Source: Parcubacteria bacterium GBS-2 (GTDB lineage: Bacteria > Patescibacteriota > Minisyncoccia > Minisyncoccales > GBS-2). From it: a stretch of DNA of 64,000 nt. Both the position numbers and the translations under genes were made by a program. The notes beneath the pieces were generated by a model, which worked only from the letters and a program-made list of their open reading frames with translations, was not told the DNA's origin and searched no databases. This document shows positions 2,857-26,698 of the stretch, one piece after another (position 1 is the stretch's first letter; every line of letters begins with the position of its first letter). The stretch is taken from positions 161,889-225,888 of the forward strand of contig LEKP01000001.1 of NCBI GenBank assembly GCA_001443025.1. Reading direction: 5' to 3'.

Positions 2857-3259
2857 CATGTCAGAAGAGAAAAAATATTGGCAAGGAGTAGGGAGAAGAA
2901 AAACTGCGGTTGCTGTTGTAAAGATCTTCAAAGAAAAAGACCCTTCTTTTTTAGTTAACGAAAAGCCTTTAGAGAAATATTTTCCGCTTTTTGAGTTACA
3001 AAAAATTGCAAAGGCTCCACTTGAGCTTTTAAAATTAGAGAATAAATTCAAAGTTTTGGCGTTAGTTAGTGGAGGAGGATTAGTTGCTCAATCTGAAGCG
3101 ATAAGATTAGGATTAGCGAGAGCTTTAGTGACATTTAAAGAAGAATTTAGAAAAAAATTAAAAAAGGCTGGATTTTTAAGAAGAGATCCGAGAGCTAAAG
3201 AAAGGAAAAAACCAGGATTGAAACGTGCGAGAAGAGCTCCTCAGTGGCAGAAGAGGTAA
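2849..3259 (+). CDS. rpsI: 30S ribosomal protein S9
   Basis: Sequence GVGRRKTAVAVV...GGGLVAQSEAIRLGLARAL...DPRAKERKKPGLKRARRAPQWQKR matches S9. An alternative ATG lies at 2858. Confidence 0.9.
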   Translation: MNNMSEEKKYWQGVGRRKTAVAVVKIFKEKDPSFLVNEKPLEKYFPLFELQKIAKAPLELLKLENKFKVLALVSGGGLVAQSEAIRLGLARALVTFKEEFRKKLKKAGFLRRDPRAKERKKPGLKRARRAPQWQKR

Positions 3260-3269
3260 AGTTAAAAAA

Positions 3270-3288
3270 AGGAGATGAAACATCTCCT
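3270..3288 (-). terminator. Hairpin AGGAGATG-AAA-CATCTCCT between convergent genes
   Basis: Perfect 8-bp stem. On the minus strand it is followed by T7 (the A7 at 3263-3269 on plus), so it is a good intrinsic terminator for the GT2 gene. It may also stop the S9 operon. Confidence 0.6.
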
Positions 3289-4336
3289 AACAACTCTTTG
3301 GCGTGGCATTGAACTCCTTTTTTCTTTTCAAAAGAGCTATTACTGATGGTAAATAGTGGATATAGGCTGCAAGTGGCGCAAGGATGATAAGAATAAATGT
3401 TCTTTTCAATGGTATTTTTAGGATCGCTGAGCCAATTCCAGTACAAATCATTGCTTGAATTATTGGAAATATTCCTATATACCCTTGTAAGATCATCAAG
3501 GGTAGGAGAATATAGATCGTCCCTGAGAGCAATTTGACAATTATAAAAGCCTTGATTTTCTTTTTGTGTAAGTATTTTAGATCGTTGATTACTCCTGATG
3601 CCCATCTCCACCGTTGTCTCAATAAATCTTTGATCCTAAGAGGCGCTTTAGTAATAATTTTCTCTCGGGAGAACTTATATCTATATTTCGCAGAGGTAGA
3701 AATAAGAGCGAAAGCGAAGGCATTATCTTCTGTGATACTCTCTCTGTTCCATGTGATTTGATCTTCTAGTCGTTTTGTGATGACAATTCCTCCTCCCCAA
3801 AGAGTGAGAGGAGATGTTTTCTCGTACAGTGAAAACTCAGGAATAGTCAGACCAATTCTAAAAGTTTCGATAGTCTCAATTATTAAGTTCTGTGCGATTG
3901 GTACTTCTTGGAATTGAATAATATCCGCGTCGGTCGGGATTTCTTTGAACTGTGGTAACGAATCTTCATCAAGAAATAATGTATACTCATTTTCTGGTGG
4001 TTGGTTAATTCTTGCCCATTCAAGGTCTCTTCCTTTCCACTTTGCCTCGCATTCAAATTCCTCTGGTACCACCTTTACGTTCGCTTCAGACAATTCTTGT
4101 ATTTTTCTTTTTGTAATGATCAAAGGATTTTTGTTGCAGTAATTTATGCAATGTTCTACTGTTTTCTTTAGAACTTCTACTTCTCTTCCAAGTGTCAAAA
4201 TTTTAATTGTAAAGTCTCTGGTAGTGCTAGTGTTCTTGTGTGTCTTCTGAGAGTGATGGTAGTAATAAAATAGAGCAATGTACCACCACACTGTCGTTAC
4301 AATCCAAGGGAAGAGGATCAACAACCCCCATTCCAT
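3287..4336 (-). CDS. Family-2 glycosyltransferase-like membrane protein
   Basis: DxD-like LFLDEDS and a Q(R/Q)xRW-type motif LRQRWRWASG are present, with N- and C-terminal TM helices. A strong SD GGAGGTGA lies at 4341-4348 (minus strand). Confidence 0.6.
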   Translation of the reverse strand: MEWGLLILFPWIVTTVWWYIALFYYYHHSQKTHKNTSTTRDFTIKILTLGREVEVLKKTVEHCINYCNKNPLIITKRKIQELSEANVKVVPEEFECEAKWKGRDLEWARINQPPENEYTLFLDEDSLPQFKEIPTDADIIQFQEVPIAQNLIIETIETFRIGLTIPEFSLYEKTSPLTLWGGGIVITKRLEDQITWNRESITEDNAFAFALISTSAKYRYKFSREKIITKAPLRIKDLLRQRWRWASGVINDLKYLHKKKIKAFIIVKLLSGTIYILLPLMILQGYIGIFPIIQAMICTGIGSAILKIPLKRTFILIILAPLAAYIHYLPSVIALLKRKKEFNATPKSC

Positions 4337-4419
4337 TCCCTCACCTCCTTTTGGTATATTATTTTAAAGTATACCATTAAATCAGGAAAATTTCAAGGCC
4401 AAAAAAAAATAATTAATCG

Positions 4420-5178
4420 TTGAAAATGCTTAAAGAGTTAATAGATAAATTTTATTTGGAAAGAGAGAAAGAAAAAAAGAAAAAAGAAAAAGAAAGAGTA
4501 AGGTTTTTTATTAGTGAAGCAGGAAAATGTCCTAGGATGATATTTTTTAGATTTAAGAAAGCACCAGCAGAAGAGATTGAGCCTGAAAGACTAAGAATCT
4601 TTGAGGAGGGAGAAATAATTCAACAAAGAATTCTGAGACTCCTTTTTTCTTTGGGAATTGTCAGGGCGACTGAAGTTCAAATTCCTCCTCAGGAATTGGT
4701 TGCAGGCAGAGCAGATGCAATTATTTCCTTTACTGATAAAACTTTTTCTGATTTGGGAATTGACCTCAAAGAAAAAATAGAGCCTGGAATTCCCTACGTT
4801 TTAGAAATAAAAAGTGTTTCTGGAAAAATAAATTTAAAAAAGCTTCCTCTTCCAGATCATATTAACCAACTACAGCTTTATTTACACTTTTTCAAAATTA
4901 AAAAGGGAATCTTGCTTTATCTAAACAAAGATACTCAAAAAATCACTGAATTTATTTTTGAATATGATAAAAACTTAGTAGAAAAAATTTTGAATTGGTT
5001 TTTGAAATTAAAAGAAAAGATTGAAGCAGATTTAGTCCCCATTAGATTACCTGATTGGCCTGACAACTGGCAATGTCAAAATTGCGAATTTTTCGAAATT
5101 TGCAAAATTGCAGGTGAAAGAGAAATATCGTGGGAAAAATTAAAAAAAGAAATTGAGAAAGGAGAAATTTTATCTTAA
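4420..5178 (+). CDS. Cas4/RecB-like PD-(D/E)XK exonuclease with 4-Cys cluster
   Basis: N-terminal Cys (GKCPRMIFF), GRADAII, VLEIKSVS (ExK), QLQLYLHF (QxxxY) and C-terminal CQNCEFFEIC (Cx2Cx5C). The ATG at 4426 is the likelier start. Confidence 0.65.
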   Translation: MKMLKELIDKFYLEREKEKKKKEKERVRFFISEAGKCPRMIFFRFKKAPAEEIEPERLRIFEEGEIIQQRILRLLFSLGIVRATEVQIPPQELVAGRADAIISFTDKTFSDLGIDLKEKIEPGIPYVLEIKSVSGKINLKKLPLPDHINQLQLYLHFFKIKKGILLYLNKDTQKITEFIFEYDKNLVEKILNWFLKLKEKIEADLVPIRLPDWPDNWQCQNCEFFEICKIAGEREISWEKLKKEIEKGEILS

Positions 5179-12472: not shown

Positions 12473-13914
12473 AATTAGAAGATTTTACAATTGAAAAGAT
12501 TAAGGAGGGATTATTAAAAAAAGAATTTTCCGCTACAGAGTTGACTAAAGCGTATTTAGAAAAAATAGAAAAAGAAGACAAAAAAATTCGCGCTTTTTTA
12601 ACTCTCTCTCCTGAAATAGCGCTCAAACAAGCAAAAGAAATAGATGAAAGAATTTTCTTGAAGAAAGAACTTCCTTCATTAGCTGGAGTTCCTTGCGCAA
12701 TAAAGGATAACATTTTAGTAGAAGGAATAAAATGTACTGCAGGATCAAAAATTTTAGAAAATTATATCGCACCCTACGATGCAACGGTCATTCGAAAATT
12801 AAAAGAGGCAGGAGTAGTGATTTTGGGGAAGACTAATTTAGATGAATTTGCGATGGGAAGTTCCAACGAAAATTCTGCGTTTTTTACCACCAAAAATCCC
12901 TTAGACTTAGAAAAAGTTCCTGGAGGATCTTCAGGAGGATCTGCTGCTGCAGTAGCGGCGAATTTTTGTGTGTTTGCTTTAGGTTCTGATACTGGAGGTT
13001 CAATTAGGCAACCCGCTTCTTTTTGTGGAATTGTTGGTTTAAAACCAACCTACGGCGCTGTTTCTAGATATGGCCTAATCGCATTTGCTTCTTCTTTAGA
13101 TCAAATAGGACCGATGACAAAGAATGTGCGCGATTGTAAAGCTGTTTTTGAAGTAATTAGGGGGAAAGATGAAATGGATTCAACAAGTCTTGAAATGAAA
13201 GAAGTGAATAATTTGCGTATTCGATCTCTCGAGGAAATAAAAATTGGACTTCCAAAAGAATATTTTTTGGAAGGAATGGATCCCGAGGTTGAAGAAAAAA
13301 TTAAAAAAGCAATAAAAAAATACGAAGAGATGGGAGCTAAAATTTTAGAAATTTCTTTGCCCCACACTCCTTATGCTCTAGCCTGTTATTACATTATTGC
13401 TACTTCCGAAGCTAGCGCAAATTTGGCAAGATATGATGGGATAAAGTATGGATTTTCGATAATAAAAAATGAACAACGAACAATTGACAATTTATTGGAA
13501 GTTTATTTTAAAAGTAGAGGGCAAGGTTTTGGGGAGGAGGTTAGAAGAAGAATAATGTTAGGAACATTTTCTCTTTCAATAGGATATTACGATGCTTACT
13601 ACCTAAGAGCAGCAAGAGTTAGGAGTTTAATTATCAAAGATTTTGAAGAAGCCTTTAAGAAAGTTGATTTAATCCTTGCTCCTACCAGTCCAACTTTACC
13701 TTTTAAATTGGGAGAAAAAATTGATGATCCTTTAAAAATGTATCTTTCTGATGTGTTTACAGTTTCAGTGAATTTAGCAGGATTGCCAGCTATTTCAATC
13801 CCAGTTGGAAAAGTAGGTAATTTGTCAGTGGGTCTTCAAATTATAGGAAAACCGTTCGAAGAAGAAAAAATTTTTGATCTGGCAACCTTCTATGAGCTTT
13901 CAACAAGTAATTAA
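12469..13914 (+). CDS. gatA: Asp/Glu-tRNA amidotransferase subunit A
   Basis: Amidase signature GGSSGGSAAAVAA...GSDTGGSIRQPASFCG. Confidence 0.92.
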   Translation: MKLEDFTIEKIKEGLLKKEFSATELTKAYLEKIEKEDKKIRAFLTLSPEIALKQAKEIDERIFLKKELPSLAGVPCAIKDNILVEGIKCTAGSKILENYIAPYDATVIRKLKEAGVVILGKTNLDEFAMGSSNENSAFFTTKNPLDLEKVPGGSSGGSAAAVAANFCVFALGSDTGGSIRQPASFCGIVGLKPTYGAVSRYGLIAFASSLDQIGPMTKNVRDCKAVFEVIRGKDEMDSTSLEMKEVNNLRIRSLEEIKIGLPKEYFLEGMDPEVEEKIKKAIKKYEEMGAKILEISLPHTPYALACYYIIATSEASANLARYDGIKYGFSIIKNEQRTIDNLLEVYFKSRGQGFGEEVRRRIMLGTFSLSIGYYDAYYLRAARVRSLIIKDFEEAFKKVDLILAPTSPTLPFKLGEKIDDPLKMYLSDVFTVSVNLAGLPAISIPVGKVGNLSVGLQIIGKPFEEEKIFDLATFYELSTSN

Positions 13915-14419
13915 TGAAATTATTTCCTTTTTACTTTATCCAGAATTTAGCGGTTGGCTTTTAATTTTAAAATACATCTTTTTAGCCTTCGGTTTTTTAT
14001 TCCTTGGTTTTAGTCTTTGGGGAATTTTTAAAACGTCATGGTTAAAAAGAGCAATTTTAATAGATCTTAAAGAGTTTCTGACATATAAACCCTACTATGC
14101 AAAAACTTTTGTTCCACAATGGAAAAAAATTTTGAAAAGATTAGAAACTGATATTGAATCAAATTTTAAGTTAGCAGTAATTGAGGCGGACGAACTTTTA
14201 AATAAAGCCTTAGAAAAGACTGGCTACGGAGGAATGGATTTAGCAGAAAAATTAGAAAAAATTCCAGAAGATGTCATTTCGAACCTAGGTGAATTAAAAA
14301 AAGTTAGAAGAATAAGAGATGATATAATTGCTGACCCTTCTTATCAGCTCACTAAAGAAGAGGCACAGAGAATAATTAAAGCTTATGAAAAGGCATTAAG
14401 AGATTTACAAGTACTTTAA
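13892..14419 (+). CDS. Hypothetical membrane protein
   Basis: The ORF has two predicted TM helices and a helical C-terminal domain. No family was recognised. The ATG at 13892 is preferred over the TTG at 13874. Confidence 0.4.
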   Translation: MSFQQVINEIISFLLYPEFSGWLLILKYIFLAFGFLFLGFSLWGIFKTSWLKRAILIDLKEFLTYKPYYAKTFVPQWKKILKRLETDIESNFKLAVIEADELLNKALEKTGYGGMDLAEKLEKIPEDVISNLGELKKVRRIRDDIIADPSYQLTKEEAQRIIKAYEKALRDLQVL

Positions 14420-14473
14420 AATTTGATAAAATAATAGATCATCTAATGAGTAAATTGCTTGCGTGTTAAATTT

Positions 14474-14545
14474 AGCGGGGTAGAGGAGTAGTACCTCGCC
14501 AGCCTCATAAGCTGGAGATCGCTGGTGCAAGTCCAGCCCCCGCAA
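14474..14545 (+). tRNA. tRNA-Met(CAU), initiator-like
   Basis: Hand-folded cloverleaf. The acceptor AGCGGGG/CCCCGCA-A has a 1:72 mismatch and otherwise matches the E. coli tRNA-fMet acceptor. A11:U24 is present and the anticodon loop is CUCAUAA. The GGG:CCC anticodon-stem signature is absent. Confidence 0.7.
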
Positions 14546-14564
14546 CAATAATAGCGAATTAGCG

Positions 14565-14969
14565 AATTAGTTGATGAGTTTATGAGTGAAGAGTTTTTCT
14601 TTGAAAAGTTAGAGGTCTATTAGAGGAGTTTGAGGTTTGCAATTAAACTTTGTAAATTGGCAAGCAGTTTCCCAATAAAGTTTTCAAGAATAAGAGATCA
14701 ATTGATAGGAGCAGCGATTTCAATTCCCCTAAATATTGCTGAAGGATCGGGCAGAAAATCACAAAAAGAGAAGATAAATTTTTATAAAATAAGTAGGACT
14801 TCTTTATTCGAATGCATTCCGATTCTTGAAATTTGTTTAAGTCTAAAATTAATAGACGGGAAGGAATATGAAGAATTAAGAAAAGAAGATTTAGAACTTT
14901 CAAAAATGATTAACGGCTTAATAAAATCCCTTTAATCTACTCATCAACTAATTCACTCATCAACTAATT
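14565..14969. repeat. Inverted repeats bounding the four-helix-bundle gene cassette
   Basis: AATTAGTTGATGAGT at 14565-14579 has two perfect inverted copies, ACTCATCAACTAATT at 14939-14953 and 14955-14969. Confidence 0.8.
14582..14935 (+). pseudogene. Four-helix-bundle protein ('23S rRNA intervening-sequence protein' family) with in-frame TAG
   Basis: ATG at 14582 gives MSEEFFFEKLEVY, then TAG (14621-14623), then in frame RSLRFAIKLCKLASSFP...IPLNIAEGSGRKSQKEKINFYKISRTSLFE. This is the family pattern FEKLEVYQ...NIAEG.GR. Confidence 0.75.
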
Positions 14970-14979
14970 ACTAAATAAC

Positions 14980-15051
14980 GTCGGGGTAGCTCAATGGCTA
15001 GAGCGCTGCTCTCATAAGGCAGAGATGTGGGTTCAATCCCCACCCCCGACA
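14980..15051 (+). tRNA. tRNA with CAU anticodon, elongator type (Met or lysidine-modified Ile2)
   Basis: Cloverleaf with acceptor GTCGGGG/CCCCGAC, D arm GCTC-AATGGCTA-GAGC, anticodon loop CTCATAA and T arm GTGGG-TTCAATC-CCCAC. C11:G24 is elongator-like. Confidence 0.75.
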
Positions 15052-15056
15052 TAAAA

Positions 15057-15176
15057 TAGTAGATTAGTAAATGAGTACGGCGCTTCGCGCCTTTAGTAGA
15101 TGAGTTAAAAAATTCTCATTATCTTCTTATTAACTCATTAACTCATCTACTCATCAACTCATTTACTAATTTACTA
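15057..15176 (+). repeat. About 120-nt branched hairpin element (copy C) filling the tRNA spacer
   Basis: The outer arm 15057-15076 pairs with 15157-15176 at 18 of 20 positions. There is a side hairpin GGCGC-TTC-GCGCC (15079-15091). The inner arm AGTAGATGAGTTA pairs with TAACTCATCTACT. The core 15063-15105 recurs inverted at 19683-19725. Confidence 0.75.
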
Positions 15177-15181
15177 ATTAT

Positions 15182-15257
15182 GGGGGCGTAGTTCAGCCCG
15201 GTCTAGAACACCCGCCTGTCACGCGGGAGCCCGTGGGTTCAAATCCCATCGCCCCCG
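15182..15257 (+). tRNA. tRNA-Asp(GUC)
   Basis: Cloverleaf with acceptor GGGGGCG/CGCCCCC, anticodon loop CTGTCAC, T arm GTGGG-TTCAAAT-CCCAT and discriminator G. Confidence 0.9.
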
Positions 15258-15275
15258 CTGCCAAAATTTTGGCAG
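15258..15275 (+). other. Perfect 18-nt palindrome CTGCCAAAATTTTGGCAG immediately 3' of tRNA-Asp
   Basis: Seen directly. Candidate processing or termination hairpin. Confidence 0.5.
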
Positions 15276-15343
15276 CCAGATTCTCTCGATAAAGCAATGA
15301 GAGAATTCTGGTAAAGGTCGTAAATCTTGAAAGATAGAAAATC

Positions 15344-15607
15344 ATGGTAGAAAAAAAGCCAGACCAAGAATTCTTAGAAGCCATTGTCAAATTTCTCTGC
15401 GATCACCCTGAAGCAGCAAAAATAACAAGGACGGTAGACGAGATGGGAGTCTTGCTTTCTCTGAAAGTTCATCCTGACGATATGGGTCAAATCATCGGAA
15501 AGCAAGGACAGACTGTGAAAGCAATCAGACATTTAGTAAGGATTGTTGGATTAAAAAACCATGCCAGGGTGACGCTGAGAATAGAAGAACCAGAGAAAAA
15601 AACCTAA
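15344..15607 (+). CDS. KH-domain RNA-binding protein (YlqC/UPF0109-like), copy 1
   Basis: 87 aa with VDEMGVLLSLKVHPDDMGQIIGKQGQTVKAIRHLV (GxxG KH motif). Confidence 0.8.
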   Translation: MVEKKPDQEFLEAIVKFLCDHPEAAKITRTVDEMGVLLSLKVHPDDMGQIIGKQGQTVKAIRHLVRIVGLKNHARVTLRIEEPEKKT

Positions 15608-15629
15608 AAAAATCGAGAGAATCTGACTT

Positions 15630-15658
15630 AAAGAGGGGCTAATTTAGCCCCTCTTTTT
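15630..15658 (+). terminator. Intrinsic terminator after KH copy 1
   Basis: AAAGAGGGGC-TAATTTA-GCCCCTCTTT followed by a T run. Confidence 0.75.
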
Positions 15659-15756
15659 CTTGACAATAATTTAAAAAATGGAGAAAATATAATTGTTTTA
15701 AGCTCCGATTGATCGAAGATCTGGAGCGAAAGGTCAAAATAGAAATTCAGAAAAAT

Positions 15757-16023
15757 ATGGCAAAATTACCCGCAGATCAAGAATTCCTTGAATACGTTGT
15801 GAAGTCTCTTGTCGATCACAAAGAGGATGTAAAAGTTACGAGAAAAGTTGACGAAATGGGAGTTTTGCTTTCTCTGAAAGTTCATCCAGATGACATGGGG
15901 CAGATAATAGGTAAAGGCGGAGCGACAGTCAGGGCAATAAGATCTTTGGTAAGGTTGGTTGGGGCCAAAAATCATGCAAGAGTGAATTTAAAGATTGAAG
16001 AGCCAGAAAAGAAAGAAAGCTAA
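15757..16023 (+). CDS. KH-domain RNA-binding protein, copy 2 (tandem paralogue)
   Basis: MAKLPADQEFLEYVV...VDEMGVLLSLKVHPDDMGQIIGKGGATVRAIRSLV. The ATG at 15757 gives 88 aa, parallel to copy 1. The track start at 15709 is a TTG. Confidence 0.8.
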   Translation: MAKLPADQEFLEYVVKSLVDHKEDVKVTRKVDEMGVLLSLKVHPDDMGQIIGKGGATVRAIRSLVRLVGAKNHARVNLKIEEPEKKES

Positions 16024-16044
16024 AGATAATTTACAATTTGCCAA

Positions 16045-16076
16045 AGCGGTGCTATATTAAAAAATGGCACCGTTTT
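16045..16076 (+). terminator. Possible terminator after KH copy 2
   Basis: CGGTGC/GCACCG stem with a 14-nt loop, followed by TTTTGGTTTT. Confidence 0.35.
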
Positions 16077-16087
16077 GGTTTTAGAGC

Positions 16088-16759
16088 ATGATTACGTTTC
16101 ACATCATTACAATCTTTCCAAAAATTTTTGATTCTTTTTTGCAAGAGTCTTTTATTAGAAAGGCTCAAAAAAAGAAATTGATTAAGGTGAAAATTTATGA
16201 TCTAAGACAATTTGCTGAAGACAAGAGAAAAAGCGTAGATGACAGACCTTATGGTGGAGGGTTGGGAATGGTATTAAAAGTAGAACCGATTTATAAAGCG
16301 GTAAAATTTATAAAATCAAAAACCAAAAAACAAAAATCAAAAATTGTCCTATTTACTCCTCGAGGAAAACAGTTTACTCAAAAGATGGCTTATTCTTTCT
16401 CAAAGTTAAAACATTTAATATTAATTTGTGGAAGATACGAAGGAGTGGACGAGAGGGTTGCAAAATTTATTGCTGATCTTAAAATTTCAATTGGCCCCTA
16501 TGATTTAATGGGAGGAGAATTGCCTGCTATGATAGTAATTGAAGCAGTAACTAGATTAATTCCGGGAGTAATAGGGAAACCCCAGTTTTTAAAAGAGAGG
16601 ATTGTAAAAGGAGGATTCGTTGAGTACCCTCAATATACCAGACCAGAAGTTTTTTCTCCCGAAAAAGGAATTTATTGGAAGGTTCCAAAAGTTCTTTTAT
16701 CTGGAAATCACAAAAAAATTAGAGAGTGGAGGGAAAGAAGAAAAAAAATTATTGAATGA
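16088..16759 (+). CDS. trmD: tRNA (guanine37-N1)-methyltransferase
   Basis: ITIFPKIF...DDRPYGGGLGMVLKVEP...ICGRYEGVDERV...GPYDLMGGELPAM...LLSGNHKKIREWR. Confidence 0.92.
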   Translation: MITFHIITIFPKIFDSFLQESFIRKAQKKKLIKVKIYDLRQFAEDKRKSVDDRPYGGGLGMVLKVEPIYKAVKFIKSKTKKQKSKIVLFTPRGKQFTQKMAYSFSKLKHLILICGRYEGVDERVAKFIADLKISIGPYDLMGGELPAMIVIEAVTRLIPGVIGKPQFLKERIVKGGFVEYPQYTRPEVFSPEKGIYWKVPKVLLSGNHKKIREWRERRKKIIE

Positions 16760-16884
16760 AGCTAGAAAAATGATAAAATGATAAAAGAAGAAATTGAGAA
16801 ACTAAAAACTAGAAATAATTTTTTCAAATCTTAAAAGATAGGGCTCTAGACTAACTCGGAAGTTCTTAATTTTGTGATTTTTCT

Positions 16885-16960
16885 GGGGATGTAAGCTTAA
16901 TTGGTAAACTGAGGGACTCCAAATCCCTTATTCCAGGTTCGAATCCTGGCATCCCCGCCA
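16885..16960 (+). tRNA. tRNA-Trp(CCA), CCA end encoded
   Basis: Acceptor GGGGATG/CATCCCC, anticodon arm AGGGA-CTCCAAA-TCCCT, T arm CCAGG-TTCGAAT-CCTGG, then G-CCA. Confidence 0.85.
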
Positions 16961-16990
16961 AAATATTGTAAAGTTGTAGATTAAAATAAA

Positions 16991-17338
16991 ATGGCAAGAA
17001 TGGATAAAAAGAAAATTTTTACTTTTTTGACTTTCTCTTTGGTTCCTAGCTCAACCTTCATTGGAGGAATCTTTGGTTATTACCTTTGTAAATTATTAGC
17101 TGGTAAAAAACCCGGAGAGCAGGGGATAATAAAGTCTTTAATTTTTACATTTCACAAATGGAAAATTCATCTTCATCACTGGTTTTTAGCAACACTCTTT
17201 TTATTTTTTTCAGTTTATTTCGATTTTTTAGCGCTTTTTTCTCAATTTTTTATCGGATTTTTAACCGGAATTATCTTCCAAGGGTTTACCTATCCAGACT
17301 GGTATAAAATTGTCACCCGAGTAAAATGTCAAAGTTAA
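16991..17338 (+). CDS. Hypothetical small membrane protein
   Basis: 115 aa with 3 hydrophobic helices. It overlaps pcm by 13 nt. Confidence 0.4.
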   Translation: MARMDKKKIFTFLTFSLVPSSTFIGGIFGYYLCKLLAGKKPGEQGIIKSLIFTFHKWKIHLHHWFLATLFLFFSVYFDFLALFSQFFIGFLTGIIFQGFTYPDWYKIVTRVKCQS

Positions 17339-17964
17339 TTCATTCTCTAATTCAACAAGGGTGGTTAAAAACTCCTCAAATTATTAAAGCGTTTCAGAAA
17401 GTAAAAAGAGAAGACTTTCTGCCAAAGGAGATTAAAGGCCTTGCTGAATTGAACGAGGCTCTTCCAATAGGTTATGGGCAAACAATTTCTCAACCTTTAG
17501 TGGTTGCTTTTATGTTGGAACTTCTTCAACCAAGAGAAGGAGAAAAAATTTTAGACATTGGTTCTGGTTCTGGCTGGACAAGCGCTCTTTTGGCAGAAAT
17601 TGTTGGAGAAAAAGGAAAGGTGATTGCAATGGAAATTGTCCCAGAATTGGTTGAATTTGGGAAAAACAATGTCAAAAAATACAATTTTATTGAAAAGAAA
17701 ATTGTTGAGTTTGTCTGGGGTGATGGGTCAAAGGGTTATCCCAAAGAAGCTCCCTATGATAAAATTTTAGTTTCAGCAACTGCAAAAAAATGTTATAAAT
17801 CATGGAAAGAACAATTAAAAGTTGGAGGAAGAATTGTAACCCCCATTGGAAATTCAATCTGGCTTTTCATTAAAAAATCAGCTCCCTGTCAAGATTCTGG
17901 TGAGGGAGAATTTGAGGAATTTGAATATCCTGGTTTCGTCTTCGTTCCATTAATCGAAAAATAA
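17326..17964 (+). CDS. pcm: Protein-L-isoaspartate O-methyltransferase
   Basis: GYGQTISQPLVVAFMLELL...ILDIGSGSGWTSALLAEIVG. Confidence 0.85.
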   Translation: MSKLIHSLIQQGWLKTPQIIKAFQKVKREDFLPKEIKGLAELNEALPIGYGQTISQPLVVAFMLELLQPREGEKILDIGSGSGWTSALLAEIVGEKGKVIAMEIVPELVEFGKNNVKKYNFIEKKIVEFVWGDGSKGYPKEAPYDKILVSATAKKCYKSWKEQLKVGGRIVTPIGNSIWLFIKKSAPCQDSGEGEFEEFEYPGFVFVPLIEK

Positions 17965-17983
17965 TCTATTACATTTTTTTGCC

Positions 17984-18925
17984 ATGGCTAAAATATGTAA
18001 GAGATTTTCTGTGAAATTTCTGATAGGATTTTTTTGTTTTTTATTCTTGATTTTCTCTTTAATTTTCACTTTCTGGTGGGGAATTTTTGTTCCAAAAGAT
18101 CAGATTGCAAAAGAAAAAATTTTTTCAGTTGAAAAAGGACAAGGTCTTTTGGAAATTAGTCAAAATTTAGAAAAAGAGGGATTAATAAAAAATAAAATTT
18201 TTTTTATTCTCTATGTCCTCTTGAAAGAAAAAGAAAAAAGCCTTCAAGCAGGAAAATATTTTCTTTCTTCTTCAATGAACATTCCCCAAATTGCTCAAAA
18301 AATAATTTCTGGAGATATTGCGAAAATAAAAGTTACCATTCCAGAAGGATTTAACACAAAAGACATTGAAGAAAAATTGGGTATTAAATTGCCAGCTGAA
18401 AATTTAGAAGGATATTTATTCCCTGACACTTATTATCTTCCGGTTGATTTTACTGGAGAAGATCTTGTGAAAGTAATGAGAGAAAATTTTGAAAAGAAAA
18501 TTGCTCCTTATAAAGAAGAGATTGAAAAAAGTGGAAAAACTCTTCAAGAAATTATTATCATGGCTTCGCTTTTGGAAAAAGAAGTAAAAACGAAGGAAGA
18601 AAAAGAATTGGTAGCTGGAATTTTGTGGAAAAGGTTAAAAGTGGGAATGCCTCTTCAAGTTGATGCGACAATAACTTATCTTACTGGAAAAAAGACAACA
18701 AAAATCACTTTTGAAGATTTGCAAATCGATTCTCCTTATAACACTTATAAATACAAAGGATTACCTCCAGGTCCGATTTGCAACCCAGGACTTGAAAGCA
18801 TTTTAGCAGCTTTGTATCCTAAAGAAAGCGATTATTGGTATTATCTCTCAACACCAGATGGAAAAACTTTATTTTTTAAAACTTTAGAGGAACATAATTT
18901 AGCAAAAGCAAAATATTTAAAATGA
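17984..18925 (+). CDS. mltG: Endolytic murein transglycosylase MltG (YceG-like)
   Basis: N-terminal TM helix, then IPEGFNTKDIEEKL, EGYLFPDTYY, IIMASLLEKEV and LQVDATITY. Confidence 0.85.
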   Translation: MAKICKRFSVKFLIGFFCFLFLIFSLIFTFWWGIFVPKDQIAKEKIFSVEKGQGLLEISQNLEKEGLIKNKIFFILYVLLKEKEKSLQAGKYFLSSSMNIPQIAQKIISGDIAKIKVTIPEGFNTKDIEEKLGIKLPAENLEGYLFPDTYYLPVDFTGEDLVKVMRENFEKKIAPYKEEIEKSGKTLQEIIIMASLLEKEVKTKEEKELVAGILWKRLKVGMPLQVDATITYLTGKKTTKITFEDLQIDSPYNTYKYKGLPPGPICNPGLESILAALYPKESDYWYYLSTPDGKTLFFKTLEEHNLAKAKYLK

Positions 18926-19578
18926 AAAAAATAATAATTCCAATTTCAATAATTGCTTTGTTGGGAATTGCTGGAATTTTAATTCTTAAAGGTCAATTTA
19001 AAAAAGAGGAAATTTCTCCCAAGCTAGAAATTAAAATGTCAGAAGTTAAAGGAAAAAAGGCGGTGATGATAATTGCCTTTAGGGATTTTAGAGACGCTGA
19101 ATATTTTGTACCAAAAGATATTTTAGAAAAAGCCGGTATTGAGGTAAAAACTGCATCGAATAAGTTGGGAACTGCAATCGGAGCAGATGGAGGAGATACA
19201 AACGTGGATTTGTTGGTTTCTCAAATAAACGTTGCAGATTTTGATGCAATAATTTTTGTTGGGGGTCCTGGATGTTTAGATGCCTTAGACAATGAAGATT
19301 CTTACAAAGTAGCAAAAGAAGCAGTTTCTCAAAATAAAGTTTTAGCAGCAATTTGTATTTCACCAGTAATTTTGGCAAAAGCTGGGGTTTTAGAAGGAAA
19401 AAAAGCGACTTGTTGGACTGATCCTTTAGGATCTCAGGCAAAAATTTTAAAAGAAAAAGGGGCAATCTTTGAGAAAAAATCAGTAGTGGTTGATGGGAAG
19501 ATTATTACTGCCAATGGGCCTGGAGCTGCTGAAGAATTTGGTAGAGCAATTGTCGAGGTCTTGACAAAAGAAAAATAA
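18922..19578 (+). CDS. DJ-1/PfpI family protein with N-terminal membrane anchor
   Basis: DAIIFVGGPG...AAICISPVILAKAG (nucleophile-elbow Cys)...ITANGPGAAEEF. Confidence 0.8.
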   Translation: MKKIIIPISIIALLGIAGILILKGQFKKEEISPKLEIKMSEVKGKKAVMIIAFRDFRDAEYFVPKDILEKAGIEVKTASNKLGTAIGADGGDTNVDLLVSQINVADFDAIIFVGGPGCLDALDNEDSYKVAKEAVSQNKVLAAICISPVILAKAGVLEGKKATCWTDPLGSQAKILKEKGAIFEKKSVVVDGKIITANGPGAAEEFGRAIVEVLTKEK

Positions 19579-19597
19579 AAGATTAGTATTAAAATTA

Positions 19598-19751
19598 TTA
19601 GCCGCAGACAGCAGGTATAATTAGTAGATGAGTGAATTAGTAGATGAGTTGATGAGTAAATAAGTTGATGAGAAATCTTTTCACTCATCTACTAAAGGCG
19701 CGAAGTGCCGTACTCATTTACTAATTTACTAATAAATCCTGCCGAGGCTAA
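19598..19751 (+). promoter_or_regulatory. Putative rplJ (L10) leader stem
   Basis: TTAGCC (19598-19603) pairs with GGCTAA (19746-19751). GCAGG (19611-19615) pairs with CCTGC (19738-19742). An asymmetric internal loop lies between them (GCAGACA vs CGA). The apex is occupied by repeat element D. Confidence 0.5.
19616..19737 (-). repeat. Branched hairpin element (copy D), inverted relative to copy C
   Basis: 19683-19725 is the reverse complement of 15063-15105 with a single mismatch (42 of 43). The arms are built from TAGTAGATGAGT- and TTGATGAGT-type words. Confidence 0.8.
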
Positions 19752-19764
19752 AAGGGTTTTTTGA

Positions 19765-19788
19765 TTGTCTGCGGTGCAGACAATTTTT
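19765..19788 (+). terminator. Attenuator-type terminator 6 nt upstream of the rplJ ATG
   Basis: TTGTCTGC-GGT-GCAGACAA followed by TTTTT. The upstream segment CCGCAGACA (19602-19610) can pair with 19766-19774 as an antiterminator. Confidence 0.55.
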
Positions 19789-19793
19789 AATTT

Positions 19794-20321
19794 ATGGCAT
19801 TAACTAAAGAAAAAAAGAGAAAAATTTTGGAGCAATTGAAAGAAAGAATCGAAAAACAAAAAATAATGATTTTTGTTGATTTTACTGGTTTGAAAAATAA
19901 GGATTTTTTTGCTTTGAGAAAAAAATTAAATGAACAAGGAGATGAAATGAAAGTTGCGAAAAAAACATTAATAAACTTGGCATTGAAAGAGAAGAAATTA
20001 AACGTAGTTGATGTTAAAAAATTGATTGGAGAAATAGCAGTGATTTTCGGGATGGAAAATGAAATTTCGAGTGCAAAGACAGTTTACGAATTTTCAAGAG
20101 AGAATAAAAATTTAAAGATTTTGGGAGGGATTTTTGAAAAAAACTTTATTGATCCAGAAAAAATCGAGGAATTAGCGAAACTACCATCAAGAGAAGAACT
20201 TTTGTCAAAATTAGTTGGGAGTATTTCAGCTCCAATTTCAAATTTTGTTGGTGTTTTAAGAGCCATTCCTCAAAATTTGGTTTTTGTTTTGTCACAAATT
20301 CAATTAAAGGTCCAAAAGTAA
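19794..20321 (+). CDS. rplJ: 50S ribosomal protein L10
   Basis: 175 aa with an L10-like N-terminal domain. It directly precedes L7/L12. Confidence 0.9.
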   Translation: MALTKEKKRKILEQLKERIEKQKIMIFVDFTGLKNKDFFALRKKLNEQGDEMKVAKKTLINLALKEKKLNVVDVKKLIGEIAVIFGMENEISSAKTVYEFSRENKNLKILGGIFEKNFIDPEKIEELAKLPSREELLSKLVGSISAPISNFVGVLRAIPQNLVFVLSQIQLKVQK

Positions 20322-20333
20322 AAGAGCAATAAA

Positions 20334-20762
20334 ATGGCAGAAGAAAAAAAAGAAGAAAAAATTGAAATTCCAGAAAAGTTTAAAAAGATAGTCGAAGAGA
20401 TTGAAAAAATGTCTGTTTTGGATTTGGCAGAGCTGGTAAAGATTTTAGAAAAGAAATTTGGAGTTTCTGCTGTTCCTCAAGTTGTTACAGCACCAACTGC
20501 AGCTCCTGCAACAACTGGTGCAGCCCCAGCTGCAGAGGAAAAATCAACTTTCACTGTAGTTTTGAGCTCAGTTGGTCCTAAAAAAATTGAGGTAATAAAA
20601 ATTGTCAGAGATGTTACTGGAAAAGGATTGAAAGAATCAAAAGATCTAGTTGATGCAGTTGAAAGTGCCCCACAGGTAATAAAAGAAAACGTTAAAAAGG
20701 AAGAAGCGGAAGAGATTAAAAAGAAATTCGAAGGAGCTGGAGCAAAAGTTGAGTTGAAATAA
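20334..20762 (+). CDS. rplL: 50S ribosomal protein L7/L12
   Basis: Ala/Pro hinge ([18 protein letters not shown]) and [27 protein letters not shown]...[21 protein letters not shown]. Confidence 0.95.
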
Positions 20763-20793
20763 AAAAAGAGGGGGATAAAAAATTTATTTGGAT

Positions 20794-21930
20794 TCAGCGG
20801 TGGCTGAGATTTTTGAGCACATCCACAACGAATTCAACAATTTCTTCTAATGGAATTCGCGTCGTTGGTACATCGGGCGCAGTCAAAGAACCGTTTAGTA
20901 TAAGTCGTCCCCCTTTTTCCCCAACGAACATGTACCATTCTGGTACCTTCTCGATTTTTCCTGGTTTTTTCAAATCGTTTTTCCTTTGAGGTAACTTCCT
21001 CGTGGAGTCGAGGGAAATTTCCCGAAGCCGGAGCAGTGCTATTAAATCTTCAGAAATCTTTTCTACCCGGGAACCGAGAATTTTATTGTTAAAGAATATC
21101 TGCACGTGTCCATCCAGGTTTTTCTGTATAATTATTGCCGCCCCCTTTTCTCTTGCTACTACGTTAAATTTTGGATTGTTGGAAATACCAGCCACTATAA
21201 AGTATCTGCCAATTCTGATTCTTTGCGCTTTTTCTACCTCTTCTTTTGCTTTTTCGTACTTTTGAATGTCTGCCGCAATGAATTTCAGTACTTCCCTTGC
21301 CACTTCCGGGTCTACCGTAGCTAACTCTGCAAAATCACAGACTCTATGGAAATTGGGATTTTGAAGTAACTGATAGTAATGACGGACTCTTTTTGGCATT
21401 TTTGTTTCATCCTCAAAGAACTCCCTGATAAGTTCAGCAGCTTTTTGATTATTTCTTTTGAGTCTGCTTCGGTGGAACTCGATAATTCCAGTGGCTATTT
21501 TAATTCCAAATTCCATAATTTTCTCATCGTCATCGATTTCTCTTGCTATACTTTTAGTCATATCGTTGAGATCGAAAGGTTCACTCCTTCCCTCAAGATC
21601 CGCCCTTCGTACATGAGCAAGGATAGGTCGAAGCCACTTTTCCTCAGCTATCCCTAATTCTTCCGCTACAATCTGGGCACTGGTCTTCCCTTTGAGTCCA
21701 TGGTGATCGAACATTTGACGTCCCCGATCAATCCAGAGAACATTTTTGAAATTAATTTGAGGAGATAAAGTTTCATCCCCTTCTCCGCTAAACCAGTACT
21801 TTTGGATCTTTGCTCCATACATTTTCAGTAAGGCCACTGAAACTATACTATCTTCATCTGGCTTTCGATGCGTTGCAATAATTATTGGTCTGTCAAGCCA
21901 CCACTTTTTATCTTTATTCTTTTCCACCAA
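20794..21930 (-). CDS. DHH/MYG1-like metal-dependent phosphoesterase-like protein
   Basis: IIATHRKPDEDSIVSVALL (DxD-type motif I) and DRGRQMFDHHG (DHH). G+C is about 45% in sampled lines. TTG start with SD GGAGGTGA 6 nt upstream. Confidence 0.4.
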   Translation of the reverse strand: MVEKNKDKKWWLDRPIIIATHRKPDEDSIVSVALLKMYGAKIQKYWFSGEGDETLSPQINFKNVLWIDRGRQMFDHHGLKGKTSAQIVAEELGIAEEKWLRPILAHVRRADLEGRSEPFDLNDMTKSIAREIDDDEKIMEFGIKIATGIIEFHRSRLKRNNQKAAELIREFFEDETKMPKRVRHYYQLLQNPNFHRVCDFAELATVDPEVAREVLKFIAADIQKYEKAKEEVEKAQRIRIGRYFIVAGISNNPKFNVVAREKGAAIIIQKNLDGHVQIFFNNKILGSRVEKISEDLIALLRLREISLDSTRKLPQRKNDLKKPGKIEKVPEWYMFVGEKGGRLILNGSLTAPDVPTTRIPLEEIVEFVVDVLKNLSHR

Positions 21931-25957: not shown

Positions 25958-26698
25958 ATGAAGAATAATATAAAAGTTTTGATAATTCTTCTGATTTCCA
26001 TCTTTTGGGGACTACTTTTGATTTTCCATTTTCAAAAAACAGTTTCAGCTGCTACTTGCGGAAACGGAGTTTGCGAATCAGGAGAAACTTGTTCAAATTG
26101 CAGTATAGATTGTGGAAGTTGTGGTCCTACTTGTGGAAATGGGATTTGTGAATCAGGAGAAACTTGTAGTAATTGTTCTATAGATTGTGGTTCTTGCGGA
26201 CCAACTTGCGGAAACGGAGTTTGCGAATCAGGAGAAACTTGTTCAAATTGCAGTATAGATTGTGGAAGTTGTGGTCCTACTTGTGGAAATGGGATTTGTG
26301 AATCAGGAGAAGTAAACATATGCTGCAGTGATTGTCCTCCAACATGTGGAAACGGAGTTTGCGAATCAAATTGCGGAGAAAGTGCTTCAAATTGCTGTTT
26401 AGATTGTTATGTAGAACATTATCAAAAGAAATGCTATGACAACGATGTTTATTGGTACGATTGTAATGGTCAAAGAAAAGATAAATACCAAGAGTGTGGA
26501 ACTTCTGGTTGGACAGATGAATATCGATGTGCGGGAAATTGGGTTCAAAGAAAGTATATAAACAGAGGTTGTTCAAATGCACAATGTTATGCAACGGAAG
26601 AATGGAAGGATTATCAGTATTGCTCAAATTACTGCCTAAATGGAAAATGTGTTTTTCCTCCAACAGTGATAACTAAAGGAGCGGTGGTGACATATTAA
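25958..26698 (+). CDS. Secreted Cys-rich repeat protein (TCGNGxCESGETCSNCSIDCGSCGP x4-5) ending in VITKGAVVTY
   Basis: Signal/TM peptide MKNNIKVLIILLISIFWGLLLIF, 25-aa Cys repeats, a Cys/aromatic-rich domain and the conserved C-terminal decapeptide. Confidence 0.7.
   Translation: MKNNIKVLIILLISIFWGLLLIFHFQKTVSAATCGNGVCESGETCSNCSIDCGSCGPTCGNGICESGETCSNCSIDCGSCGPTCGNGVCESGETCSNCSIDCGSCGPTCGNGICESGEVNICCSDCPPTCGNGVCESNCGESASNCCLDCYVEHYQKKCYDNDVYWYDCNGQRKDKYQECGTSGWTDEYRCAGNWVQRKYINRGCSNAQCYATEEWKDYQYCSNYCLNGKCVFPPTVITKGAVVTY
26054..26311 (+). repeat. 150-bp-period tandem duplication inside the Cys-rich gene
   Basis: 26054-26161 is identical to 26204-26311 (108 nt, checked by hand). The units are 75-bp A and B modules. 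Confidence 0.85.

Follow-up and report, generated by a model that had tools for sequence, protein, structure and literature searches.

What kind of element fills the spacer between two transfer RNA (tRNA) genes of Parcubacteria bacterium GBS-2, and how does a second copy of it come to stand, inverted, in the leader of rplJ, the gene of ribosomal protein L10, 4.5 kb away? The question is raised by a stretch of 64,000 nt of this genome (contig LEKP01000001.1, positions 161,889 to 225,888; the window), in which an earlier note made from the letters alone had described a stop-codon-rich, branched hairpin of 120 nt and had offered three candidate roles for it, namely an RNase III-type processing stem, a transcription or translation insulator, and a miniature non-autonomous mobile element that targets structured-RNA loci. 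The last of these is the best supported of the three, and it fits best because the hairpins form a repeat family, occur as lineage-specific copies and lie in structured-RNA contexts. The hairpin (element B) and its inverted copy (element C), which lack an open reading frame (ORF), are probably copies of a palindromic element of foldback type that resembles the intervening sequences (IVSs) of ribosomal RNA (rRNA) and is related to a resident cassette (element A) encoding a protein of the 23S_rRNA_IVP family (IVP). The three elements, all contained within 5.2 kb of the 64-kb window, are as follows:

14553..14970, plus strand: element A, the ORF-bearing relative, whose arms (14553-14590 and 14936-14970) bracket the 23S_rRNA_IVP gene

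15057..15176, plus strand: element B, the ORF-less palindromic element, defined by its fold, its inverted repeat, a period-8 array and a 120-nt insertion or deletion (indel) relative to the related metagenome locus L101

19617..19737, minus strand: element C, the inverted copy of B, with a core at 19622-19731 and ends uncertain by about 6 nt, in the apical loop of the L10-leader hairpin GCAGG...CCTGC

The spacer between the end of tRNA(CAU) at 15051 and the start of tRNA-Asp at 15182 is occupied by the 120 nt of B. In the RNA fold of 15052-15181 the outer stem joins 15057-15076 to 15157-15176 through 20 pairs, 19 of them Watson-Crick and one G-U; the stem that had been put at 18 of 20 pairs is therefore real and slightly better than described. 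The tRNA calls and the fold also agree with the earlier description of the tRNA ends, the filling of the spacer, the G+C-rich side hairpin GGCGC-TTC-GCGCC at 15079-15091 and the inner stem, which has 14 pairs (15095-15108 with 15138-15151) and encloses a loop of 29 nt. The folding energy of B is -47.9 kcal/mol against -13.9 +/- 3.1 kcal/mol in 200 shuffles (z -10.9), none of which equalled it, and the corresponding z for C is -6.4. Since ATTAT is found 3' of both B and C in the orientation of the element, the right end of B may lie at 15181.

Both arms of B and C consist of tandem 8-nt units, AGTnnATK, arranged in two arrays that are inverted relative to each other, and arrays of period 8 are reported by Tandem Repeats Finder at 14552-14595, 15129-15180, 19623-19672 and 19711-19733. 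Words resembling TAGTAGATGAGT occur 23 times in the window against an expectation of 3.0 +/- 1.9, and they are clustered at the three loci with few chance matches elsewhere. Direct and inverted repeat comparison shows the arms of A, B and C to be built from one unit family; the inverted repeats of A are 22-23 nt long (87-91%), and its 3' arm and that of B agree over 36 nt at 86% identity. A repeat family comprising ORF-less copies and an ORF-bearing one, as had been suggested, is supported by these shared units, and because the unit family is common to B, C and the arms of A, the two hairpins are read as miniature counterparts of the IVS-type cassette.

The kinship of B and C extends beyond their units. 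Their first arms match in inverted orientation over 58 nt at 93% (15057-15114 with 19674-19731) and their second arms over 58 nt at 83% (15124-15181 with 19617-19674), a similarity longer than the 43-nt core with one substitution that had been pointed out before; the core itself does reappear inverted, at 19683-19725, with one base changed. Core and G+C-rich side hairpin have no other occurrence in the window. The alignment of B with C has 89% column identity, the differences falling mostly at variable positions of the repeat units, to which is added one whole-unit indel of 8 nt by which C is the shorter. Because a shared non-repetitive core rules out independent origin, one of the two was copied from the other or both were copied from a common source. 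The substitution in the core had been said to preserve pairing by turning a G-C pair of the side hairpin into G-U; this holds, but on the plus strand alone, which is the sense strand of rplJ, and the lone G-U of C is compatible, as one data point, with tolerance at the RNA level.

The position of C, correctly placed by the earlier note inside the rplJ leader, can be stated more exactly with respect to the following feature:

19584..19798, plus strand: L10 (rplJ) leader, RF00557, with a promoter TTGACA-17-TAGTAT at 19561-19589 and an attenuator hairpin at 19763-19785

Promoter and attenuator flank C, which therefore lies within the 5' untranslated region, and the attenuator at 19763-19785 is the sole terminator-like site near C. 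A 113-nt insertion sits where the hairpin GACAGCAGG...CCUGCCGAGG of RF00557 has a loop of 12 nt, in other words C replaces the apical loop of a conserved hairpin of the L10 leader. The match to RF00557 (cmscan) covers the full model (1-138) with 42.4 bits and an E-value of 7e-6, and it misses the gathering score of 44 by 1.6 bits because of this loop insertion; leaders of relatives without the insertion score 45.2-46.3 bits, and those of loci L180, L182 and L185 pass the gathering score. Insertions of the kind of B and C thus push annotations of structured RNAs under threshold, the L10 leader being the example here. In L180/L181 (6425-6503) the rplJ leader is longer by about 80 nt, which lie between attenuator hairpin and rplJ start codon and contain CCCCTAGTA and CTACGGGG; this is another lineage-specific insertion in that leader.

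Whether B and C were gained recently can be judged from relatives, which were found for the site of B through IVP homologues (71-82% identical) and for the site of C through L10 homologues (77-83% identical). The gene order GatC-GatA-membrane protein-tRNA(CAU)-IVP cassette-tRNA(CAU)-tRNA-Asp is kept at the former. The Met-to-Asp spacer of L101 measures 10 nt, TTAAATTTAT, where the window has TAAAA, the 120 nt of B and ATTAT, so that the indel is exactly 120 nt; the spacer is 2 nt long in L307/L309 and consists of 60 nt of plain hairpins in L310. That of L312 (2968-3193) has 226 nt, is G+C-rich with direct periodic GCGAGN-like tracts and is unrelated to B, and the presence of a different insert indicates that the Met-to-Asp spacer is a hotspot for different insertions. 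As for the site of C, GCAGG and CCTGC enclose a loop of 9-21 nt in the L10 leaders of four relatives. With empty sites in related species at both loci, B and C are lineage-specific, which bears out the view of them as lineage-specific mobile copies. All three copies occupy putatively transcribed structured-RNA contexts, A and B in a tRNA operon and C in the L10 leader between promoter and attenuator. As an observation on the same cluster, loci L307-L309 carry a tyrosine-recombinase (phage integrase) gene just past tRNA-Asp (~3350-4198 in L307) that is absent there in the window, which suggests that an element has integrated into the cluster at its tRNA-Asp end.

The ORF-bearing relative gives the family a protein:

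14582..14935, plus strand: IVP gene, 117 codons, encoding a 23S_rRNA_IVP four-helix-bundle protein (PF05635, E 5e-28; TIGR02436, E 9e-29)

The start of this gene, ATG AGT, falls within the last unit of the 5' arm of A, and relatives of its product in the PDB are 2gsc and 2rld, each deposited with five chains. The window strain has an in-frame TAG at 14621-14623, at which position the sister-strain contigs L098/L099, otherwise almost identical across the region, have CAG and encode an intact IVP of 117 aa; an intact database protein is likewise 100% identical to IVP. The TAG looks like a very recent knockout or strain variant. Readthrough or recoding was ruled out, given the CAG of the sister strains and the five long ORFs of the window that TAG terminates. 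Among IVP orthologues nonsynonymous differences (pN 0.12-0.21) are few while synonymous ones (pS 0.64-0.86) are saturated, which indicates purifying selection, and on these grounds the gene is real and functional in the lineage. Element A is kept at the orthologous locus in L101, L307-L310 and L312, so that the cassette is old and has been passed on vertically over a long time, and the arms at the six orthologous loci retain units of 7-8 nt based on (T/G)AGT, on the sense strand in the 5' arm and on the antisense strand in the 3' arm at all six, with variation in unit number and detail. The need for a stem alone would not keep such a motif, and its retention points to a constraint at the sequence level or to continual regeneration of the arrays.

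A survey of 80 metagenome loci with IVP homologues (L100-L179) places element A among similar cassettes. Significant inverted repeats bracket the IVP ORF in 28 of 68 cases, against 0 of 139 control ORFs of the same loci, and in 21 of these 28 the arms are periodic at lag 6, 7 or 8, with unit sequences that are unrelated across lineages (GGACGT-type, CTCTTG-type, CACAGAA-type, AGTnnATK). In 18 of the 80 loci a tRNA gene is found at a distance of 95-380 nt from the cassette, which always stands on the 3' side of that gene and may have either orientation; tRNA-adjacent cassettes are those of L100/L101, L103, L105, L108-L112, L115, L122, L128, L129, L137, L139, L140, L146 and L161. In L102, which belongs to a distant organism with an IVP 45% identical, the cassette (2900-3412) is accompanied by ORF-less tight hairpins of identical arm sequence, one of which (4080-4184) ends 3 nt from the 3' end of the transfer-messenger RNA (tmRNA) gene (4185-4605, minus strand). 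The bracketing of IVP genes by inverted arrays of 6-8-nt units and their enrichment 3' of tRNA genes point to a general rule, of which no statement was found in the literature searched, whose coverage leaves aside most subscription journals; IVP genes have been noted scattered within cas operons (PMC3936711). Two loci of the survey show further arrangements around tRNA sequences. In L140 (126-760 and 1120-1200) a tRNA-Leu gene with a hairpin directly after it precedes an apparent tandem duplicate of the IVP cassette, a region of about 130 nt 5' of the IVP ORF being repeated after it, and in L109 (5290-5430) a long periodic hairpin with a T run after it comes behind a stretch that looks like a tRNA's 3' part, with T arm and acceptor end, and for which neither ARAGORN nor Rfam made a call.

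The ORF-less side of the family was approached by a scan for octamer arrays in 185,579 genomes, which returned at least 120 loci (L187-L306), the contigs of the window's own genome not being among the matches listed. Among these listed matches, most belong to Bacteroidota (Cytophagales, Chitinophagaceae, Saprospiraceae and others), with further ones in Acidobacteriota, cyanobacteria, the candidate phyla radiation (CPR) and a nanoarchaeon; 29 of 120 lie between genes and form hairpins of 80-410 nt whose arms are periodic, and 91 are one-sided arrays without an inverted partner; an IVP gene is present within the locus in 2 of 120; and the hairpins, none of which (0 of 29) adjoins a tRNA gene, occur between tandem, convergent and divergent genes. 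A scan of viral contigs gave 92 loci, almost all one-sided microsatellites and without an IVP gene. The proposal that the elements target structured-RNA loci is thus supported for the IVP cassettes, with 18 of 80 just 3' of a tRNA gene, and not for the ORF-less octamer hairpins among the matches listed.

The unit motif is conserved between species in which synonymous sites have reached saturation, a hint that a sequence-specific factor, possibly an IVP pentamer, may act on the arm units. Recognition of the arm arrays by such a pentamer would be compatible with the conserved motif, with arms that are common within a genome in two unrelated lineages, and with the purifying selection on the gene.

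The surroundings of A and B in the window comprise the following features, of which the promoter-like site is a consensus match only and the tRNA genes are tRNA calls:

14404..14432, plus strand: promoter-like site TTTACA-17-TAAAAT with TG, upstream of the tRNA cluster

14474..14546, plus strand: tRNA(CAU), upstream of element A

14980..15051, plus strand: tRNA(CAU), between A and B

15182..15258, plus strand: tRNA-Asp, downstream of B

A scan of 14300-15450 detected no terminator-like site before tRNA-Asp, and the arrangement is consistent with a single tRNA precursor that would run through A and B. Directly downstream of the cluster are two tandem paralogous genes of KhpA/KhpB-type KH-domain proteins (15344-15607 and 15709-16023), the first identified by Pfam scan and the second by sequence similarity; the relative L312 has one. 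Elsewhere in the window, at 26052-26311, there is a tandem repeat of 75 nt (3.5 copies, 78% identity), the consensus of which, translated by eye, would give a Cys-rich repeat of 25 residues.

The course of events proposed for B and C begins with their insertion or copying in this lineage only, each inside a transcribed non-coding RNA. In the transcript each copy would form an imperfect duplex of about 34-50 bp, which would lengthen a helix in the case of C and join the ends of two tRNAs in the case of B without disturbing them, and such sites would tolerate the element; C would sit at the tip of a regulatory hairpin that has its protein-binding part at the base. The duplex is probably cut back by RNase III, the enzyme that acts likewise on the intervening sequences of rRNA, and the element may be selfish or near-neutral, and not required by its host.

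A number of observations weigh against this account. Mobility is inferred only from presence or absence and from two copies, and for each site taken alone a deletion in all relatives instead of an insertion is formally possible. The 64-kb window holds only two ORF-less copies, and a covariance model of B and C detected no further copy in 256 kb (the window and the loci, close relatives included), its matches being B, C and, weakly and on both strands, other octamer hairpins, with nothing in the 13-kb regions of four relatives; the core of B had no match in the viral contigs. The search for target-site duplications recommended earlier gave no clear one at either locus, as B has TAAAA and ATTAT on its flanks and shows no direct repeat when set against the empty site TTAAATTTAT, and C has TATAAT and ATAAAT, where an imperfect ATAAT/ATAAA repeat is possible and the ends are ambiguous. 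Among the ORFs of 13000-21500 and in the related loci nothing was noticed that could serve as a transposase, reverse transcriptase or nuclease, most ORFs of the window not having been domain-scanned. Co-transcription through B and C is predicted from promoter and terminator consensus matches, and cleavage of their transcripts by RNase III is presumed; the RNase III signature motif was not found in the six frames of the window, a result that says nothing on the rest of the genome. If pairing were selected in RNA, an excess of G-U over A-C mismatches would be expected on the transcribed strand. The arms of 32 IVP loci with significant flanking inverted repeats have 56 mismatches of G-U type, 55 of A-C type and 193 others, and ORF-less hairpins between co-oriented genes have 14 and 18 of the first two types, respectively; the arms therefore carry no RNA-level signature, and their mismatches are mostly transversions. 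Finally, the hosts of B and C are a tRNA spacer and the mRNA leader of a ribosomal protein, unlike those of the rRNA elements, and B and C are not intervening sequences in the strict sense.

Named RNA and repeat classes were also considered. Rfam 15 has no family for B or C at the gathering threshold, and a permissive search gave only chance-level matches to snoZ266 (E 0.7-6); the Rfam check that had been suggested thus yields no match to either element. Integron attC sites, CRISPR repeats, retrons and type III antitoxin arrays were dropped, since the arms flank an ORF and there is no spacer array; no integrase, Cas or reverse-transcriptase gene is near, either in the window or at the syntenic loci, where the sole integrase, that of L307-L309, lies past tRNA-Asp and has no counterpart here.

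Among the other explanations, an adaptive one would make B and C elements of RNA processing, with RNase III sites by which tRNA-Met and tRNA-Asp would be parted and an altered leader hairpin that would tune L10/L12 expression. The exact fit of B between the mature ends of two RNAs, with 5 nt left to each tRNA, the position of C within the regulatory hairpin of the L10 leader and the G-U that the lone core substitution gives on the sense strand are in its favour, and so is the fact that the elements are identical across eight contigs of the species that come from several samples (JGI sets named GBS...77C among them); this identity, however, reflects one species and not conservation through time. 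Since all related species examined lack B and C and manage on spacers of 2-10 nt and short loops, and as no wobble bias is found in the arms across the family, an adaptive role is unlikely. Still less probable is that B and C are classical MITEs (miniature inverted-repeat transposable elements), that is, deletion derivatives of an insertion sequence that a conventional transposase, encoded at another place in the genome, would mobilise in trans. The terminal inverted repeats, the length (about 120 nt), the presence of two copies and the sites left empty in relatives would all suit a MITE, and insertion without duplication is compatible with enzymes of IS200/IS605 or IS110 type. Yet the ends are arrays of tandem units instead of unique terminal repeats, no clear target-site duplication is visible, no transposase was noticed in the ORFs and loci mentioned above, and the sole ORF-bearing relative encodes a four-helix-bundle protein of 117 aa.

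Two further readings have very little probability. According to one, the hairpins arose in situ and independently by expansion of an 8-nt repeat and local inverted duplication, with no copying between loci. Arms do differ by whole units between copies and species, the 91 of 120 octamer arrays that are one-sided among the matches listed are microsatellites, and heptamer arrays are known to be prone to slippage (PMC4692102); but independent origin cannot yield the common non-repetitive core of 43 nt, the unique hairpin and the branched layout of B and C, and slippage explains the variation within arms only. The other, equally improbable, sees in the stem a transcription terminator and in the stops of all frames a translation insulator against stray ribosomes. 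The stems are strong, some related hairpins are followed by a T run (e.g., L109 5319-5426), and the stop codons in all frames of both strands are real, with at least three stops in each of the six frames of B, a count reached by 4 of 5000 windows of 120 nt taken at random from this sequence. The excess over base composition is modest, however, as 2.8% of composition-matched shuffles reach the same count; stop richness follows from the unit sequence in a genome of 32% G+C, and the hexamer arms that related cassettes have in other genomes lack it, which leaves the insulator role without support. A T run follows neither B nor C, on which ground the terminator was rejected, and a stop before tRNA-Asp, or in the rplJ leader ahead of its own attenuator, would silence essential genes; hairpins of other genomes, moreover, occur at all gene orientations, divergent pairs included (7 of 25 among the matches listed), which also argues against termination.

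A wider proposal is tentative and must be regarded as doubtful, if less so than the alternatives just weighed. IVP cassettes, encoding Avd-like pentamers, and ORF-less hairpins with matching arms would together form one widespread and undescribed class of bacterial foldback elements, whose protein would recognise its own arms and which would prefer to settle just 3' of genes for tRNA or tmRNA and in structured RNAs, at their apical loops; the intervening sequences of rRNA, and perhaps the STRR (short tandemly repeated repetitive) sequences of cyanobacteria, would be special cases of it. If true, recognition of the arms by IVP would explain both why the motif outlasts saturation at synonymous sites and why cassette and ORF-less copies have arms in common in each genome.

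Intervening sequences of rRNA are extended stem-loops, bordered by complementary sequences, that stand in place of helix tetraloops; they are excised by RNase III, are sporadic, and some encode S23p (PMC4990558). Insertions in the rRNA genes of CPR include both 23S_rRNA_IVP ORFs and short ORF-less forms (PMC11270868). Compared with those of 16S and 23S rRNA (Leptospira, Coxiella, Brucella, CPR), C is alike in that a stem-loop replaces the apical loop of a structured transcribed RNA. The distribution is likewise sporadic, B and C being in all contigs of the species and absent at both sites in related species, and ORF-less and ORF-bearing forms coexist, the ORF of element A being of the same Pfam family. 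Differences are that no rRNA occurs in the 64-kb window, that the arms consist of tandem 8-nt units, a feature unmentioned in the IVS literature compared, and that the IVP gene is under purifying selection here, unlike the decaying ORF of Coxiella (PMC4990558).

Hairpins made of inverted 7-nt units are known, in the cyanobacterial STRR sequences and the GGGAATC pairs of Xanthomonas, and the earlier note's reservation that the family might prove to be an already described repeat applies to this extent. STRR sequences reportedly occur inside the cyanobacterial RNase P RNA gene, going by the title of a 1997 paper by Vioque, and are said to extend helix P12 there. The tandem-heptamer hairpins of filamentous cyanobacteria, found for instance between hupS and hupL (PMC2670836), resemble B and C in being hairpins of inverted tandem units of 6-9 nt in intergenic or transcribed regions. 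They are unlike them in that their units have 7 nt, are G/C-richer and belong to heterocystous cyanobacteria, as opposed to the 8-nt AGTnnATK of a Patescibacteria-like host, whose L10 and IVP have homologues listed at source under Patescibacteria names; B and C, in addition, share a unique non-repetitive core and side hairpin, and no link of STRR to an IVP gene is reported in the literature found. The heptamer arrays of Xanthomonas form intergenic convergent pairs, 70-75 per genome, with lengths that vary between species (PMC4692102); they are similar as 7-nt units in inverted arrays from which stem-loops or cruciforms can form, and dissimilar in being G-rich and studied as G-quadruplex-forming repeats, with no ORF-bearing form described. 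Xanthomonas does have an IVP homologue, XCC0516, the structure of which is 2gsc in the PDB.

The architecture also has a parallel in the foldback (FB) transposons of eukaryotes, which have long inverted termini of short tandem repeats and occur as copies with or without an internal coding segment; being eukaryotic, far larger and linked to a transposase, these offer an analogy of architecture with no homology implied. MITEs and repetitive extragenic palindromic (REP) sequences with their REPIN forms share with B and C the nature of small palindromic non-coding intergenic repeats with presence/absence polymorphism. They differ from them in that B and C are of low copy number in the window, have periodic arms and no tags of the GTAG/CGTC type, and come without a noticed transposase or REP-associated tyrosine transposase (RAYT). 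In sum, B and C are not strict intervening sequences, as they are not in rRNA, nor strict STRR sequences, having an 8-nt unit and a host of another phylum, nor demonstrable MITEs. Intervening sequences have been looked upon as an oddity of rRNA genes, and no function is known for their ORF (S23p/IVP); the present locus displays an architecture of IVS type outside rRNA, with an ORF-bearing cassette retained between tRNA genes and two ORF-less copies with empty sites, and it offers a concrete system in which to study the copying of such elements, their removal by RNase III and the binding of the IVP protein.

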